A DNA stretch of 64,000 bases from an uncultured Chloroflexia bacterium. GTDB taxonomy: Bacteria; Chloroflexota; Limnocylindria; Limnocylindrales; CSP1-4. Under the pieces are notes generated by a model, which had not been told where the DNA came from, did no database searches, and was given only the letters and a program-made list of their open reading frames with translations. Below are positions 16,821 through 24,254 of this stretch, piece by piece (the stretch's first letter is position 1; each line of letters begins with the position of its first letter). The stretch covers positions 736,001 through 800,000 of the forward strand of contig CAWHXD010000019.1 in assembly GCA_963833225.1 (NCBI GenBank), in the 5' to 3' direction. The position numbers and the translations under genes were made by a program.

Positions 16821-17105
16821 CCTTCGTTCAGATCCGAGGGATCAGGCAGCGTGTTCTGGTCCTGCCTCACAAGGCATCCTGCAACTGCGCCACCCAGTGT
16901 GTGAAACCTGTTGGTTATGGACCATGCCATCGGCAGGGCAGCATCGGCAGGACGTCTGGCACCTTGACCGTGAGGCGATCCCGCCGGACGATCGCATCAG
17001 GGACAAGGAGACGAGAAGCTTGGTGATCGCTGCGGAGTCAGGCCCTCAGCGGGGGCGCGCCGGGCGAGCCGTGGCCTGCGGGCCTCGCCCGAGTCTCGAC
17101 GCACC

Positions 17106-17603
17106 GTGAACATGAACATGCTCACGGTGTTCCTCACGTTCTTCGCCGTGGCCGGTCCGCCGGTCGTTGAGGCGATGCGCGCCAGACGACGGCTCGATGA
17201 CGCCCTCGTCGCTCGCGGGTCCCTGCCGCGTCACCCGGGGCGTGGGCTCCCGCCGGGAATGTCGATGTTGGAGGCACTTCGCCTGTTCGTCGTAACCTGG
17301 GGCCGTCAAGACACGATCCGCGTGGACTTGGCGATCGAGGACTTCGAGCGCAGCAAGCAGGCCGCGAAGCTGGGTCACGATCTGCCAGAGGGCCGGGCGG
17401 CAGGGAGATGGACGATCGCAGCGTTGCTGCTCTGGCTTCTCGGTCTGCCGCTTGTCTTGATGCTCCTGCCGACGGCGGACCGCGTCGTGAGCGTTGTTGT
17501 CCCCGCATTCGCCGTCATCCGGGTCCCGCTCGTCATCGCCGGCTGCTGGGCCGTCTGGCACGCGATCCGCGTGGCACGCTCGGCCGCGTCAGGCGGCTCC
17601 TGA
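17106..17603 (+). CDS. hypothetical membrane protein (passenger gene)
   Basis: 165 aa, three hydrophobic segments, inside the IRs. Confidence 0.6.
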   Translation: MNMNMLTVFLTFFAVAGPPVVEAMRARRRLDDALVARGSLPRHPGRGLPPGMSMLEALRLFVVTWGRQDTIRVDLAIEDFERSKQAAKLGHDLPEGRAAGRWTIAALLLWLLGLPLVLMLLPTADRVVSVVVPAFAVIRVPLVIAGCWAVWHAIRVARSAASGGS

Positions 17604-17619
17604 GACCAATGGCTCCCCC

Positions 17620-19473
17620 AAAGAACGGCAGGTCGAGCTCGTCGTCGGGCGCGATGACCGCCACCTTCGGGATCGTCTTCGGCCGCATCTTCTTGCAGTC
17701 GGGGCAGGCCGGCGTCCCGAACGGCACCTTGACCCGGGCGCGGGGCGACATGCGGTAGGGCTTGTGGCGCGGGTCGGCGCATGACCAGGTAACGGTCTTC
17801 GCGTAGGTCGCCTTGATTGTGAGCGGCGTCCGGGGCAGGTTCGCGTCGGCGTCCCACTCGGGGACGAGGTCAGGCCGGACGCCGGCGACACTCTCGGCGG
17901 CGGTCGTCCGCGCCGTCGAGCACCGCTCGCAGCGCGTCCGGCGCTTCGTGCGCTGACCAACCTCGGCCCTCCACTCGTGCTGGCAGCGGTGGCACAGCCA
18001 GCGAGCGTCGTAGTCGGAGCCGGCGGTGACGACGGCGATGTCGCGCTCGTTGCGCTCGAAGTCCCAGTCGCGGGCGATCTCGGGGTAGTCGGTGAGCATG
18101 GTGCCCGCGACGTCGGCCGAGATCGTGCGCTGGCCCGGCTTGAACCGGAACGTGAGCGGCGGGAAGCCCAGCCGCCGGCGCTCCTCGTTGTCCTCGACGA
18201 TCCGCCGCCAGACCGACTTCACCTTCGCGCCCGCGAGGTAGGCCGGCCGCGCCTCCTGGTCCCGGTCGCGCGCCGCGAGCAGCAGCCGCGACAGCGATCG
18301 GAGCTCGGTGGGATCGTCCTCGCCGGCTTCCCAGTCGGGATTCACGAACGCTGGACCGACCTCGCGGAGGTGTTCCTTGATGATCGCCGCGAACTCGGCC
18401 TCGCCAGCCTGGCCCGAAACTCCGAGGCGCGCATGAGGTTCAGGACCATCTGCAAGCGGCGGGCGTTGCGGAACCGGAACCGCCGGCGGTCGGTCAGCTT
18501 GGTGTCGATGAAGTCGAGCAGGCCCTCGGCCGGGCTGTTGTTCCGGGGATGGTCCTTGAACCCGGGCACGCGCAGCGCGATCTGCGCCCGGACGCGGTCG
18601 GTGTTCGCGCCCATCCACTCGATGATGTTCCCGCAGTCGTGCTCGTCGGCGAACGTGAGCAGCGCCTCCCAGTCGTCCTCGGAGAGGAACGCCCGCCCGA
18701 GCAGCGGCTTGATCTCCTCGTTCTCGGCCGGCCAGCCGTCCTTCGCAGCCCAGGCTTCGAGCGCGCGTTTCAAGTGGAACTCGCAGGCCACGAACGTGGC
18801 GTTCGGCCAGCGGAGCATCGCCGCCTGCTTGATCGCCTTCGCGCCGTCCGCGACGACCCACTCGACATCGCCCGGCAGCTCGCCGAGGAAGTCCGACCAG
18901 GACTCGCGCGTCTCATCGGGCGAGAGGTGCAGCCCCCACGCCCGGAGCGGCCGCTTGGGGTCGTCGCCGCCGACTGCCGCGAGCACTGCACCGGCGCGCT
19001 TGTTGGGGTCCCAGCGCTCGCCGTGATCCACCGCGTCGTAGGGGAACAGATGCAGCGGCAGCGAATCGAGGACCAGGATCTTGGGCCAGCGCTTGGGGCC
19101 GAGCTTCTCGTCGATGAGCTCGCCGAACAGGTCGATGTAGCGACCCGAGAGCCCGAAGGCGCGGCTGGCGTAGCGGAACCCGTGCTCGTCGGTCTCGTAG
19201 CGCTGGGCGTCGTAGCGGACCTTCTGGGCCGCCTTGCGGCCGGAGTCGCCCGACCCGATCAACGCGAGGACCTTGCCCATCTCGTTCGCGCTCGTGTCGA
19301 AGCCGACCGGCGTGAGCGGTCCCTGTGCCACGCCCGGCACCACGTCGCAGGCCGAGCAGGCCACGCCCAACGGGTGGCCGCTGCACGCCGGCCGTCGCGG
19401 CTCGGAGAACGTGTGCGGCTTGATCGCCGGGTCGTCCGGGACGCACTGGAACCGGGGCCGGCGGAAGGGCCGG
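17620..19473 (-). pseudogene. Mutator/IS256-superfamily DDE transposase, main part, with two zinc-ribbon (DUF4379-like) domains
   Basis: LVLDS, VVADG, CEFH, NNSPAEG; after a frameshift near 18415: YPEIARDWD..WLCHRCQHEW..RCERC and PDLVPEWD..WSC..CPDC; 3' end approximate. Confidence 0.8.
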
Positions 19474-19711
19474 GGTCAAGTCCCAGCACGTGGTGTCACA
19501 CCTCGCGCCTGATCAACTTGCCATGAGCAACGGCTGGCTCGCCTCCTCGGTCGTGGTGACGGCATCGATGGCCGCCATGGTCTCGGGCCGGAAGTAGCGC
19601 CGGCCGTCCTGCCACTCGTCGTCCTGCTCGGCGAGGATCATGCCGACGAGGCGCAGCACGGACGCCCGATTGGGGAAGATCCCGACGACCCCGGTCCGGC
19701 GCTTGAAGCTC

Positions 19712-20798
19712 TCATGTCAAGTCCCCGGTCCGTCGGGCGTCCCGGAGCATGGTTCGGTAGATCGCGTCGGAGAGGTGGCGCTTGAGGACGCGCATAGCCT
19801 CTCGACGAGTGTGGCCATGTGCGCGGGCCTGGTCGTGGATCTGGCGGGCGCGGGGTTCGTAGCGGAGCTGGATCATCGCGATGCGGTAGATGGCGGCGTT
19901 GAGGCGCCGGTTGCCGCCGCGGGAGAGGCGGTGCCGGACGGGCGCGTTCTCGCCCTCGCCCGAGCTGGCCGGGATCGGCGCGGTGCCGTTGAACCGGGCA
20001 AAGCCGGCCTCTGTGAAGCGTCGGATGTCGCCGACCTCGACGATGATCTCGGCCGCGGCGCGGGGCGCGATGCCGACGAGCTCGGTGAGCGTCGACTTCG
20101 TCTCACGCGACCAGGGTGGTGAGTTCGGCGGTGGCCGCCTTGTCCTGCTCGAGGACGTCGCGCAGCATCGCCACGCGGTGCTCGATCAGCCGCAGCCGCA
20201 GGGCGACCGTGGGGTCGGTGACGCCGGAGGTGTCGAGCCGACGCAGCGAGTTCACGCGAGCGCTCACCGTCTTCGCTGGCCGGAGCTGGGCGCGCAGGTC
20301 CTCGGGCAGGTCGTGCACGAGGGCGTCGAGCTCGCCGAGGAGCTGGACGCGGACCTTGGTGAGGGAAGTGCGGGCGTTGTGCCACAGGGCGATCCGGTCG
20401 CGGACCGAGTCCGGCGCCGCCGATACCGCGTGCTTGAACGCCCGAGCGAGACGAGGGTTCGTCTGCGTCTCCGCGGCGATCCGGTGTGAGTCGAGCCGGT
20501 CGGACTTGCCCTCGTGACGGCCGCGCTGGCGGGCCGTCGTCTTGTGCGGCGGCACGTCGCGAACATCGCATCCGGCCTCGACGAGGAACTCGGCCAGGTG
20601 CCGGCCGAGCCCGCTGGCGCCCTCGACGCCCCAGCGATCGGCCGGGCCGAGCCCGGCAGCCCACGCCAGGCCGGCGTCATGCCCTTCGCGCGTGTTCGGG
20701 AAGTGGGCGTGTCCGAGCTCGCCGCCGCGCGAGTCGAGCACGGTCGCCGTGAACGTCTTGCGGTGCGGGTCGACGCCGACGATGTTGGGTGCCGTCAT
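19712..20798 (-). CDS. IS110 DEDD recombinase (frameshift near 20105)
   Basis: VGVDPH, GVEG, GKSDRLD; C-terminal GTAPIPASSG and GGNRRLN in the shifted frame. Confidence 0.9.
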
Positions 20799-20819
20799 GT
20801 AGTCGCCTCCAGGGTTCTG

Positions 20820-21030
20820 ACCGTCGTGGGGGAGGGACCGCGCGACGACATCCCAGTCGAGGGATCGACGCTCTCATCAGGTCAGCACGGTCCTCGGGCG
20901 ACCGTGCCGGGGTCGACACTTCAAACGGAACACCGCCACCAAATCGAGGTGGCGCCGGAGATCTCCTTCGAGTCAGGCCTCGGCACGGTCACCCACCGTA
21001 CGGGCCGCCGTCGCGGTCCTTCCGGCAGGG
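20820..21030 (-). ncRNA. putative IS110 bridge RNA
   Basis: non-coding leader with stem-loops and segments matching target (AAGGAGATC, CGTTTGA) and donor (ATGAGAGCGTC); ends approximate. Confidence 0.75.
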
Positions 21031-22195
21031 ACCACTTCAACACCAGGATCTCCTTGTTGAGCCGCTCGAGCGGGTTCGTGCTGCGGATCTTCGCCCGGTG
21101 GGTCTCAGGGAAGCTGAAGTGGGCGAGGAGATCGGGCTCGGCGTCGGCGAGCAGCTCGGCGACCGCCGCGAACCGCGGCCGGAGGCCCTCGAGGACCGCG
21201 TCGACCTGGCTGCGGGCCGACCGCTCGTCGGGCTGCTCGAACACCAGCCGGATGGCACTCGCGACCATGCTCCGGGCACTCCGGGGCACGAGGTCCTGGG
21301 CGTTGCGGGTGAAGTGCACCCGGCACCGCTGCCAGGAGGCTCCGAGCAGCTGCTCCCGGATCGCCTTCACCAGTCCGGCGTGGTCGTCGCTGATCACCAG
21401 GCGGACGCCCCGGAGGCCCCGCTCGACACAGGCCGCGGATGAAGGCTGGCCAGGCTGAGCCCTCGTCGTGCCCGGGCGACAGCTCGACTGCCAGCACCCG
21501 GCGCTCGCCACTCATCGCGACCCCGACCGCGACCAGCGCCGCCATCGACACCACCCGACCTGCCTCACGCACCTTGAGGTACGTGGCGTCGAGCCACAGG
21601 TACGGGTACGCGGTGTCACCCAGCGGCCGGCTGCGGAACGCCTCGACCTCGGCGTCGAGCGCCGCGCAGATGCGGCTGACCTCGCTCTTGCTGATGCCCT
21701 CGATGCCCAGGGCGCGGACGAGGTCGTCGACACGCCTCGTGGACACGCCCGACACGTACGCCTCCTGGACCACGGCGAGCAGCGCGCGCTCGGCTCGTCG
21801 CCGCGGCTCCAGCAGGCTCGGGAAGTACGAGCCGTCGCGGACTCGTGGGATCGCGAGCTCGACGGTGCCCACGCGGGTGTCCCAGCGCCGATCGCGGTAC
21901 CCGTTGCGACGGGTGAGGCGGCGCTCCGGATCCCGCTCGCCATGGGGGAGGCCGGTGAGCTCGGTCACCTCGGCCTCCATCACCGCCTGGGCGAGCACCC
22001 GCACGCCCTCGCGCAGAAAATCCTGGTCGCCCTCGGCGATCGCCTTGCGCACCGTGTCCTAGCACGGCCATCCTGTCCTCGGCCATCTCGGTGTTCTCCG
22101 TGTCGTCGGTTGCTAGTCCAACGACGCGAGGATGACGCGGTGGCCGTTTCCGTTCACGGCCTCAGCGCTGTGACACCAAGTCTGGGGACATGACC

Positions 22196-22364
22196 AGGGC
22201 CGGGAGCCCCAGTCCGGGTTGCCGTGGATGCGGATGGCGCCCCGGTGACCCTCGTCGCAGGCGATCGGCCGGTTCGGGATGGCGAGCGGCGGCCGGCCGC
22301 CGATCCGGCGGGCAGGCGGCGGAACGAGCGCGAGAGGCGGCGGGAGCGGGAGCGCGACGGCCAT
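22196..22364 (-). pseudogene. N-terminus of the Mutator-like transposase
   Basis: MAVALP..CDEGH..GSRP joins in frame to FRRPRFQC..H..GVACSAC when IS256 and one TSD copy are removed. Confidence 0.8.
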
Positions 22365-22538
22365 CGGCCAGACCGTGGCAGATCCGCGTGCCACCTTCCA
22401 TGACACGGGAGACCCACCGGGCCTACTTCATAACGAGGAGGTTTCACACACTGGGTGGCGCAGTTGTACAGCCACTCAACTGCGCCACCGGGTGTGGGAA
22501 ACCCAGCACCGGTCGTACTCCGGCGGTGCGGGACTTGC

Positions 22539-22581
22539 ATAATAGGATTGACAACAAGGCAAAAGTTGCATAGTCTATTAT
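22539..22581 (+). promoter_or_regulatory. sigma70 promoter and operator of hipBA
   Basis: TTGACA 22548, 17-bp spacer, TAGTCT 22571; flanked by ATAATAG/CTATTAT inverted repeat. Confidence 0.7.
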
Positions 22582-22583
22582 CC

Positions 22584-22901
22584 ATGCCTAACCGGACGCT
22601 TCCTCCGTACCCGCGCTACACCAGGCTCGCCGCCGACCTCGGTGAGCGGATCCGCCTCGCCCGGCTGCGCCGCCGCATGACTGCGGACCAGATGGCCGAA
22701 CGGATGGGGGTGACCCGTGTCACCTTGCACCGGCTGGAGCAGGGCAATCTGTCTGTCGGCTTCGGGGTTCTCGTCCGAGCGCTCGGGGTACTCGGTCTGG
22801 AGGAGGACATCGCGGCGATCGCGGCCGACGACGAACTCGGCAGGCAGCTCGCTGATGCGGCGGTCAAGCCGACCTATCGGCCGAGAAGGAACGCGCCGTG
22901 A
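22584..22901 (+). CDS. XRE-family HTH antitoxin (HipB-like)
   Basis: LGERIRLARLRRRMT..MAERMGVTRVTLHRLEQG; GTGA overlap with hipA. Confidence 0.88.
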   Translation: MPNRTLPPYPRYTRLAADLGERIRLARLRRRMTADQMAERMGVTRVTLHRLEQGNLSVGFGVLVRALGVLGLEEDIAAIAADDELGRQLADAAVKPTYRPRRNAP

Positions 22902-24136
22902 CCAGCAGCGAACTCGACACGGTCTCCGTGGAACTCGACGCAGCAGAACTCGGTGGTCCACTGGCCATCGGCACCCTGCGACGAACGCGCGCCCCGGGTG
23001 GCTCGCTCGTCGGCTTCGCCTACAGTGACGACTGGCTCGCCCGGCGTGACGCGTTCACGATCGACCCCCTGCACGGGCTCTTTCCAGGTGACCAGTGGCC
23101 GCGCGACGGGAAGATTGACCGCATCTTCACCGACGCGGCAACCGATCGCTGGGGCCGGACCCTGCTTGCCAGGCGCGAGGCACACCTCGCGCGGACCGAG
23201 CGGCGGCCACGGCGGACCCTCGACGAATGGGACTACCTCCTCAGGATCTCCGACGTCTCCCGGATGGGTGCGCTGCGCTTCCGCACGCCCGGCGGTCCCT
23301 ACCTCGACGAGAACGACGGCGTGCCGCCGATGACGCGCCTGCCGGAGCTGCTCTCTGCCGCCCACGAGATCGAGCGCCCCCGCAGTGCGAATTGGGAGGC
23401 CGAGAGCCTGGCCCTCCTGCTCGCCCCGGGCAGTTCGTTGGGCGGTGCTCGACCGAAGGCAAGCTACGTGGACCCCGACGGGTCGCTCTGGATCGCGAAG
23501 TTTCCCTCGCGGACCGACCAGCGCGACATGGCCACATGCGAGTACGTGCTGAACGAGATCGCGGCTGCGGCCGGGATCGACGTGCCCGAGCATCGGCTCC
23601 TGAGCATCGGCGAGGGTCGCCATTCGTTCGCCGCAAAGCGATTCGACCGGACCCCATCAACCCGACGTCTCTATGCCTCGTCAATGACGCTCCTCTCGCG
23701 CCGCGACAGGGAGGAGGCGAGCTACCTCGACATCGCCCTCGCGATCGCGGACCACGGGGAGACTGGCGCGATCAACGACATGCTCGCGGAGATGTTCCGG
23801 CGCGTGGTGTTCAACGTCGCCGTCGCTCATCGCGATGACCATCTCCGCAACCACGGGTTCATCAGGACGCCCCGCGGCTGGCGGCTGGCGCCGGCGTTCG
23901 ATCTGAACCCGATGCCCGAGATCCCCGAGCATGCGCTCGCGATCGACGACGCCGATCACACCGGAGACCTTGACCTCGTGTCGAGCACGGCCGCGTTCTA
24001 CCGCCTGCCCGAGCAGCGGGCGTCCGCAGTCATCGACGAGGTCATGACGGCGGTCAAGGCGTGGAAGACGCCAGCCCGGAAGGTGGGGCTCGGCCCGGTC
24101 GAGATGGACACGATCGCCGAGGCGGTGGAACGGTGA
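22898..24136 (+). CDS. hipA: HipA-family kinase toxin
   Basis: GSSLGGARPK P-loop, WIAKFP, RFDR, DDHLRNHGF, LAPAFD. Confidence 0.93.
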   Translation: MTSSELDTVSVELDAAELGGPLAIGTLRRTRAPGGSLVGFAYSDDWLARRDAFTIDPLHGLFPGDQWPRDGKIDRIFTDAATDRWGRTLLARREAHLARTERRPRRTLDEWDYLLRISDVSRMGALRFRTPGGPYLDENDGVPPMTRLPELLSAAHEIERPRSANWEAESLALLLAPGSSLGGARPKASYVDPDGSLWIAKFPSRTDQRDMATCEYVLNEIAAAAGIDVPEHRLLSIGEGRHSFAAKRFDRTPSTRRLYASSMTLLSRRDREEASYLDIALAIADHGETGAINDMLAEMFRRVVFNVAVAHRDDHLRNHGFIRTPRGWRLAPAFDLNPMPEIPEHALAIDDADHTGDLDLVSSTAAFYRLPEQRASAVIDEVMTAVKAWKTPARKVGLGPVEMDTIAEAVER

Positions 24137-24254
24137 GACCGGCTTGCCAGCCGCCGTGCTCCTCGAGATGGCCACGGTCTCGCGCGATCGTTCGACATGG
24201 CGTCGATGCCGAGGTTTCCCACACCCGGTGGCGCAGTTGGGGCATCCCTCGCGC

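Follow-up and report, generated by a model that had tools for sequence, protein, structure and literature searches.

Does the non-coding leader of an insertion sequence (IS) carry the address of the gene in which that sequence now lies? The question is raised by a stretch of 64,000 nucleotides (nt) from an uncultured Chloroflexia bacterium (contig CAWHXD010000019.1, positions 736,001 to 800,000 of the forward strand), referred to here as the window. On its minus strand two insertion sequences are nested, an IS110-family element lying inside an IS256-family element and splitting the transposase gene of the latter between I and K (...ERLNKEI/KRR, the slash marking the junction). A first-pass annotation, made from the letters of the DNA alone, had read strings in the leader of the inner element as the guides of a bridge RNA programmed against the IS256 catalytic region. 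From the analysis presented here, we propose that the leader is very probably the bridge RNA gene of an IS110-family (IS110-subgroup) element nested in an IS256-family element, and that its guides target it to IS256.

If the element behaves like IS621, its excised circle would be transcribed at the left end, giving an RNA of ~200 nt that would be bound by the DEDD recombinase. In this RNA, the target loop would have as partners AAGGAGA-TC on the bottom strand and TC-AAGCG on the top strand, the donor loop would pair with the element's ends once joined (ATGAGAGCT-TC-CYRG), and recombination at the TC core would insert the element without duplication. Such an insertion would remove the last ~63 residues of the IS256 transposase.

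The left junction reads ...CAACAAGGAGA-TC/CTGGTGTT (21047/21046) and the right junction ...ATGAGAGCT-TC/AAGCG (19705/19704), and the features to either side of them are listed in Table 1. The IS110-family element lacks terminal inverted repeats, and apart from the TC core nothing of the target is duplicated. The IS256 sequence on its two sides codes for the LNKEI and KRRT of a Transposase_mut (PF00872) protein, with the junction falling between profile positions 345 and 346. As expected of the IS256 family, this PF00872 gene, now in three pieces, lies between 33-nt terminal inverted repeats; its 5' part shows decay, in that compared with the intact relative L003 it has one extra base near 22063 and another near 21448. 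Empty IS256 sites were found in RNA-library contigs, in which exactly 1342 nt are skipped in three of four runs, with two ambiguous letters. Since these contigs of uninterrupted IS256 skip exactly 1342 nt, the element boundaries are confirmed, which is no proof of transcription. The RNA-library contigs were used only for this joint and for a missing base at 20105/20107 (see below), not for expression.

The leader is 248 nt long (21046-20799), non-coding and upstream of the recombinase gene, which is the arrangement of the IS110 subgroup. Its predicted fold has an energy of -126.9 kcal/mol (z = -3.9), a value equalled by none of 200 shuffles. The RNAalifold consensus of 27 leaders consists of a 5' stem-loop, a long stem around the target loop, and a second stem around the donor loop with a small hairpin. 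Over these leaders, 96.8% of the cells of 42 of the predicted pairs are paired, as against 29-41% when the partners are slid, and 13 of these 42 pairs are changed on both sides, as against 2-5 when slid; none of 500 shuffles attained any of five structure measures. Helix 3, the outer stem of the target module, has 20 pairs with 96.8% of cells paired, and helix 4, the outer stem of the donor module, has 12 pairs of which five are changed on both sides. The hairpin between the two target guides aligns poorly because its sequence differs between copies. Folding of the leader together with a test of covariation was among the checks that the first-pass annotation had itself proposed, and the predicted structure came through it, with 13 compensatory pairs.

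Within this fold the putative left target guide (LTG), which as DNA is AAGGAGATC, is identical to the left target (LT) plus core, and the putative right target guide (RTG) lies on the far side of a hairpin whose GCCACC/GGTGGC stem, in the window copy, falls inside 20957-20931. The putative left donor guide (LDG), ATGAGAGCGTC as DNA, matches the right end of the element at 10/11. All of these strings lie where the first-pass annotation had placed them (AAGGAGATC at 20968-20960, CGTTTGA at 20927-20921, ATGAGAGCGTC at 20877-20867), and the IS621-type layout that it had suggested, with a 5' stem-loop, a target loop with LTG 5' and RTG 3' of the hairpin, and a donor loop, agrees with the definition given in PMC11208160. 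The donor match stands in place, with the correction that its last three letters (GTC) fall in a hairpin stem of the RNA-alone fold. For the right donor guide (RDG), to which the annotation had assigned no clear sequence, we put forward the candidate CUGGGA (20856-20851), which would pair with the core plus right donor (RD) of the window copy, TCCTGG, via two G-U pairs. Elements of the set start TC-CCAG, TC-CCGG or TC-CTGG, all of them pairable with CUGGGA with 0 to 2 G-U pairs. Since the candidate is invariant, it is uninformative for co-variation, and the pattern C[CT][GA]GTG by which element starts were found partly determined the three RD variants; ATG-anchored alignments give the same three.

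Table 1. Positions of the nested elements, their junctions and the parts of the predicted bridge RNA in the window
Feature	Position	Strand	Remarks
IS256-family left terminal inverted repeat	22169..22201	-	33 nt, 79% complementary to 19468-19500
IS256 transposase gene, 5' part, ends ...ERLNKEI	21047..22086	-	PF00872 profile 18-219 and 219-345, two frames
Left target (LT) AAGGAGA	21049..21055	-	same LT in 20 further loci
Core dinucleotide TC, left copy	21047..21048	-	TC present at both junctions
IS110-family element proper	19707..21046	-	1340 bp; 1342 bp with one TC core copy
Possible -10 TGAAGT	21034..21039	-	putative promoter that would exist only in the circular form
5' stem-loop of bridge RNA	21005..21016	-	helix 2; 4/4 pairs with changes on both sides in some sequence
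Target-binding module	20896..20993	-	outer stem 20993-20970 with 20919-20896, around guides and hairpin
Left target guide (LTG) AAGGAGAUC	20960..20968	-	same sense as LT plus core, 9/9
Target-loop capping hairpin	20931..20957	-	23/23 distinct variants fold as a hairpin; stem sequences differ
Right target guide (RTG) CGUUUGA	20921..20927	-	pairs with TCAAGCG, one G-U
Donor-binding module	20835..20893	-	20893-20881 pairs with 20846-20835 as outer stem
Left donor guide (LDG) AUGAGAGCGUC	20867..20877	-	10/11 to left donor plus core
Proposed right donor guide (RDG) CUGGGA	20851..20856	-	candidate; invariant
Recombinase, N-terminal DEDD part	20103..20798	-	PF01548, E 9.6e-17; ends at premature TGA
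Recombinase, C-terminal part, +1 frame	19712..20101	-	PF02371, E 5.8e-16 (window 19715-20101)
TTGACA, possible -35 of junction promoter	19715..19720	-	would lie 17 nt from TGAAGT after end joining
Left donor (LD) ATGAGAGCT, right end of element	19707..19715	-	read from the junction
Core TC, right copy	19705..19706	-	sequence at right junction
Right target (RT) AAGCG	19700..19704	-	read from the junction
IS256 transposase gene, 3' part (KRRTGVVGIFPN... to stop)	19513..19704	-	PF00872 profile 346-378
IS256-family right terminal inverted repeat	19468..19500	-	partner of 22169-22201

It might be asked whether such strings are simply a chance resemblance, given that AAGGAG is a Shine-Dalgarno-like word, that the leader is rich in G+C and that the other matches are short. 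When 125,194 14-nt pseudo-targets from elsewhere in the window were tested against the leader, 471 had a 9/9 match, but only 22 combined such a match with 7 nt able to pair (G-U included) at a distance of 15-60 nt downstream; both hold for the real site. The strings also lie on opposite sides of a conserved hairpin within a conserved stem, and the same arrangement recurs in dozens of loci. Chance is therefore an extremely unlikely explanation of the match.

The 14-nt target, AAGGAGATCAAGCG, spells K-E-I-K-R within an N-K-E-I-K-R-R stretch and was found 27 times in the 70 genomes of the genus, distributed over 16 of them; its reversed control does not occur there at all. In 26 of the 27 cases it lies in an IS256-type gene at ...NKEIKRR, and it is thus nearly exclusive to IS256 genes. 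That the target sits just after the catalytic E of IS256 transposases, as the first-pass annotation had it, is borne out by an alignment of the uninterrupted relative L097 with the transposase of ISCth4 (6xg8, E 6.5e-32), in which the E of PQERLN stands opposite the E of TIESLN. In more general form, the E of NP(L/Q)ERLN stands opposite that of TNTIESLN in the solved transposase of ISCth4, which has E348 as its active-site glutamate (PMC7780238); the aligned residue has chain index 351, and we infer an offset of three residues between the two numberings. Since these glutamates align, the insertion falls between E+6 and E+7. As the target consists of codons beside the catalytic E, the IS256 copies in which the clade lands are of many kinds and belong to many hosts. 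Two further loci, L100 and L101 (in genomes G008 and G005 of the genus), have the intact 14-mer and a normal IS256 C-terminus, preceded from just upstream of ERLNKEI by sequence that is not IS256; they are truncated IS256 remnants with a break near the target.

No second copy of the element was found in the genome of the window. The 70 genomes of the genus yielded one full-length copy (91%), one match of 92% (query bases 1-1033) and fragments, while species-representative genomes yielded 14 loci, in metagenome-assembled genomes labelled Chloroflexota/Limnocylindrales, Ilumatobacter, Acidimicrobiales and Actinomycetales, and a metagenome scan 32 further loci. The locus set (the window, L005 and L047-L092) comprises 48 loci, 43 of them with at least one readable flank. 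Thirty-five of the 43 are in IS256 genes at ...NKEI/KRR, although three of these have a protein match that stops short of the junction on at least one side; four are in ISL3 transposase genes, one is mixed (L084) and three are elsewhere (L056, L075 and L067). L056 and L075 occupy the same site, the stop codon of a class II aldolase gene, and the flank of L067 gave no match. In L057 the element divides PF01610 between profile positions 220 and 221 (LNNLI/KRIKR), which is the equivalent position after the ISL3 catalytic region. Dozens of relatives, from soil bacteria, have this habit of targeting IS256 in common. Among annotated plasmids, a protein search returned 82 records, all below 60% identity (27.5-37.9% among the matches listed), which supplied neither a named relative nor an annotated context. 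The claim of the first-pass annotation that an RNA-guided element parasitises another IS family is supported by these counts. It had named as contrary outcomes that copies with the same guide lie at unrelated sites or show no enrichment in IS256 genes; what we found instead is 35 of 43 loci at the same IS256 codons and the 14-mer almost confined to such genes, with copies carrying altered guides located at altered sequences.

This distribution might also have arisen from a single ancient IS110 insertion in IS256, the nested pair having spread by descent or by IS256 transposition and the guide match being a relic. Both IS256 inverted repeats persist around the pair, which makes mobilisation in trans conceivable, and the identities of element and flank are weakly correlated (r = 0.41, 595 pairs). 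However, the flanking IS256 proteins are ~45-100% identical to the reference, in long open alignments (e.g. L052, 200 aa at 49%), so that these genes vary widely while the elements are 80-95% alike. Among the 35 non-duplicate loci with a right junction, which give the 595 pairs, the right flank is shared at >=95% identity in one pair only, and 35 pairs combine a likeness of at least 90% in the final 300 nt of the element with flanks that are at most 70% alike. In the recombinase tree (30 rows, with L090, where a wrong start offset gave stops, and loci lacking the full N-terminal part left out), the tight clade of L051, L052, L053 and L066 (support 99/97) occupies very different IS256 genes, 46-81% identical to the reference; as the tree is midpoint-rooted only, no direction of target switching is claimed. 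Variant guides at variant sites likewise tell against a relic. A single ancient insertion is consequently very unlikely, and the flanks establish, as far as sequence comparison can, that the clade has made many separate insertions.

Co-variation of guides with targets and element ends was tabulated for 27 distinct loci. The LTG equals LT plus core at 9/9 in 21 of them (the window and 20 others), and since twenty of these 21 have one guide, the variants are the informative cases. At L056, beside the host gene, guide and site are both CGAAAGAGATC (11/11); GGTC is found both in the guide and at the site of L077, and GAAATC in both at L082. L057, L084 and L092 have guides AA(T/A/G)TTTATC at ISL3-gene sites AAC(T/C)TGATC, a match of 6-7/9. 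On the right side, the RTG CGCTTGA occurs only with AAGCG targets (17/17 loci), and CGTTTGA occurs with AAGCG (8), AAACG (3) or AGTCG (1), AAACG targets being found only alongside CGTTTGA guides. Variation of the predicted RTG thus obeys the logic of base-pairing, G-U pairs included. At the donor end, ATAAGAGC guides accompany ATAAGAGC ends in L057 and L084, not in L090, and none of the 28 rows carrying the ATGAGAGC guide has a ATAAGAGC end. The loop co-variation characteristic of the IS110 subgroup is therefore seen at L056, L077, L082, L057 and L084 and in the C/U rule of the RTG.

These data bear on the idea that the recombinase protein recognises the site itself, the leader being a regulatory 5' untranslated region with strings similar by chance. 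It agrees with this idea that the support for an RNA role in the clade is at the level of sequence and that Rfam gave no match. Against it, the guide strings change with the target and end strings, only at positions where pairing predicts it and with the RTG following G-U logic, the stems carry compensatory changes, and the recombinase is homologous to solved bridge recombinases. We consider recognition by the protein alone very unlikely. On the reading of the leader as a bridge RNA gene, the comparisons establish the anatomy, the conserved predicted structure, and the co-variation of putative guides with both targets and ends.

Several observations of the relatives concern rearranged or partial copies. 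In L084, a metagenome contig with the element at 689-2020, the left flank is ISL3 (47% to that of L057) and the right flank an IS256 C-terminus (56%), which looks as though two nested copies had recombined or a half-matched event had taken place. In L091 (2211-2235) the right end of the element (last 13 letters) plus core abuts a full left end within an ISL3-like gene, and the LTG, AAAAGGATC, has no match to the flank of that locus; the arrangement could be a remnant of a tandem or a donor junction. At 1376-1462 of L006 (G030:C51), an isolated fragment of ~87 nt matches nothing but the segment that begins at the RTG and runs through the donor loop, at 89% identity; the locus has no recombinase gene close by, and the fragment is therefore a relic left by a related element. 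Unrelated sequence replaces the part of the leader 5' of the RTG in L068 and L088 and the part 5' of the LTG in L069; all three are 5'-truncated elements, and the right junction in IS256 is kept in the two where it is visible, L068 and L069. In the genus genomes G080 (four places) and G090 (five places) there are other multi-copy IS110-family elements, ~70% identical over ~130-190 nt of the C-terminal domain only.

The recombinase of the relative L048 is intact, has 361 aa and matches those of ISCro4 (9t56, E 1.3e-9) and IS621 (8wt6, E 1.6e-8). Residues D10, E59, D100 and D103 are invariant in the recombinases of 12 relatives. The SSGEG stretch of the PF02371 region aligns with ESGSS of ISCro4, and its conserved serine we take to be the catalytic serine. 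The recombinase stop codon, TGA (19714-19712), falls within the LD because the right end of the element is so short. In the window copy, alignment with intact relatives shows the frame to be broken by one extra base near 20105-20107, which leads to a premature TGA; this base is absent in the RNA-library contigs of the relatives. The single intact frame of the IS110 subgroup is thus lacking in the window copy and present in relatives such as L048; at the sequence level the element otherwise conforms to the subgroup. Compared with relatives, three single-base insertions (22063, 21448 and 20106) lie in a ~2-kb part (22063 to 20106) of the ~2.7-kb nested pair, and L003 has a frameshift elsewhere in its own recombinase; decay of both elements and indel errors of long-contig assemblies would explain these insertions equally well. 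In the genome of the window the element is single-copy, and the sole intact PF00872 gene of that genome (C6) reads RELRRR at the target site; the other PF01548 matches of the genome are 420-aa frames (C7 and C8). Because of the recombinase frameshift, the lack of another copy and the absence of any empty target, the window copy looks dead. It is probably an inactive relic, and its activity is not supported.

As for expression, a promoter may form when the ends of the element are joined, since TTGACA at the right end and TGAAGT near the left end would then be 17 nt apart. The string TTGACAT[GA]AGAGC is found at the right end of all listed rows with a right junction, where it had served as the search anchor. 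The proposed TTGACA/TGAAGT promoter recalls the one that is rebuilt across the joined ends of circular IS621 (PMC11208160). A screen of sequencing runs found none with half of the words and six RNA runs with 5-6%. In four metatranscriptome runs, contigs over parts of the element and leader derive from relatives. Contigs of 146/147 nt over 20833-20978 (X18) were considered as RNA ends and rejected, as they have identical end points and are probably the two branches of one assembly bubble.

A number of these results weigh against the reading of the leader as a guide RNA aimed at IS256. Most copies add little independent support for pairing because they have one guide and one target in common, and the co-variation depends on about six variant loci, some of them imperfect: the LTG matches at 8/9 in L079, at 7/9 in L057 and L060 and at 6/9 in L084, and L079 and L060 have the AAAGAGATC guide yet are located in IS256 sites. 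At the donor end, the position beside the core is mismatched in almost all copies (G in the LDG, T in the end), and the proposed RDG requires G-U pairs and never varies. Broken IS256 remnants may outpace the element in divergence, by which the apparent independence of insertions would be inflated. Rfam returned no matches at E<=1 over 19500-22200, it not being established whether Rfam 15 includes a bridge-RNA model. A promoter and terminator scan of the integrated form (19600-21200) found nothing, and the proposed junction promoter has a perfect -35 with a weak -10. The RNA-library contigs that cover the leader are those of relatives, and such libraries can contain DNA; transcription, RNA binding and catalysis are presumed by analogy with IS621. 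Finally, in the genome of the window, from an assembly that is 86% complete, the frameshifted recombinase belongs to a single-copy element and no empty 14-mer target is present.

The bridge-RNA layout of IS621 is defined in Durrant et al. 2024 (PMC11208160), and 8wt6 and related entries are structures of IS621. The present element resembles IS621 of E. coli in its DEDD plus PF02371 recombinase, in the non-coding left end upstream of the gene, in the order of a 5' stem-loop followed by target and donor loops, in the 2-nt core and scarless insertion, and in having an LTG of the same sense as the left half of the target including the core and an RTG complementary to the right half. It differs in that the protein match is distant (phmmer E 1.6e-8, C-terminal half only), the core is TC rather than CT, the RTG has 7 nt rather than the 4 of the IS621 analysis in PMC11208160, and the leader has ~248 nt as against an RNA of 177 nt. 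Furthermore, the target of IS621 is a repetitive extragenic palindromic (REP)-type repeat, whereas here it is a coding motif of another IS, known from sequence alone. The best match to a solved structure is ISCro4 (PDB 9t56, E 1.3e-9), with which the DEDD region and the C-terminal domain align, although the similarity is remote.

PMC11187229 places the non-coding region upstream of the gene in the IS110 subgroup and downstream in IS1111, and describes members of the wider group that target non-coding sites of other mobile elements, namely Tn21 ends and integron attC sites. An IS1111-subgroup member with a fixed target in another mobile element is similar in belonging to the wider IS110/IS1111 group and in targeting a mobile element, and differs in having its RNA downstream of the gene, subterminal repeats and a non-coding transposon-end target. 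ISPa11, ISPpu9, ISPpu10 and ISKpn4, with REP or attC targets (PMC11187229), also use multicopy, conserved and dispensable landing sites; these are host repeats or integron sites, often of structured DNA, whereas here the site is formed by the conserved codons of another IS family. We found no report of IS110 elements targeting IS256 genes or the codons of a transposase catalytic motif in the literature accessible to us, although the supplementary target tables of the founding papers may list it. In PMC10832570, an IS table of Mycolicibacterium hassiacum four times places an IS110 and an IS256 entry at a spacing of 842 or 1463 bp, on which the available text makes no comment, and this spacing suggests that the habit may be wider. 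Since the mechanism would be that of a textbook IS110 bridge-RNA element, no new biochemistry is added: the mechanism is ordinary and the target unusual and specialised.

The surroundings of the nested pair were also recorded. A REP-like repeat of ~27-47 nt (CAACTGCGCCACC..GTGTG.GAAACC) is present in four copies (16882-16928, 22420-22466, 22477-22503 and 24213-24249), two of which form a palindrome with a 10-nt gap ~220 nt beyond the IS256 end. A HipBA-type toxin-antitoxin pair adjoins the insertion sequences (window 22455-24136, plus strand), in which an HTH_31 gene extends over the beginning of a kinase gene with a HipA_C domain (E 5.4e-47). By the other IS256 end, a 342-aa frame on the minus strand (18342-19370) has weak Transposase_mut/MULE matches (E 2e-5 and 3e-4) and is followed by a DUF4379 treble-clef zinc-finger protein (17533-18861); a second, very divergent Mutator-type element may lie here.

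A more far-reaching reading, which we advance tentatively and regard as rather doubtful, is that the clade is a dedicated hyperparasite of DDE insertion sequences, with its guide aimed at the N-x-x-I-K-R codons after the catalytic E in both IS256 and ISL3. The sites in the two families share the core, the right half and the opening AA of the 9-nt LT plus core; the right half is AAGCG in L084, whose left flank is ISL3, and AAACG in L057 and L074. Since the sites differ at only three left-half positions, few guide mutations would suffice for a switch of host IS (cf. L057, L084 and L092). If this were true, each insertion would kill the host transposase and spare the inverted repeats, leaving the nested pair perhaps still movable in trans, and the clade could naturally restrain the expansion of IS256 in Chloroflexota and Actinomycetota.

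With the leader read as the bridge RNA gene of an element targeted to IS256, the landing site of an RNA-guided recombinase falls in that coding stretch of another transposon family which is conserved most strongly, a site that exists in many copies, can be spared by the host and is carried from phylum to phylum. In the clade, guide variants and the sites that fit them form a natural series (IS256, ISL3 and one site next to a host gene's stop codon), showing retargeting in the wild and the mismatches that are tolerated. The finding suggests that insertion sequences police each other.

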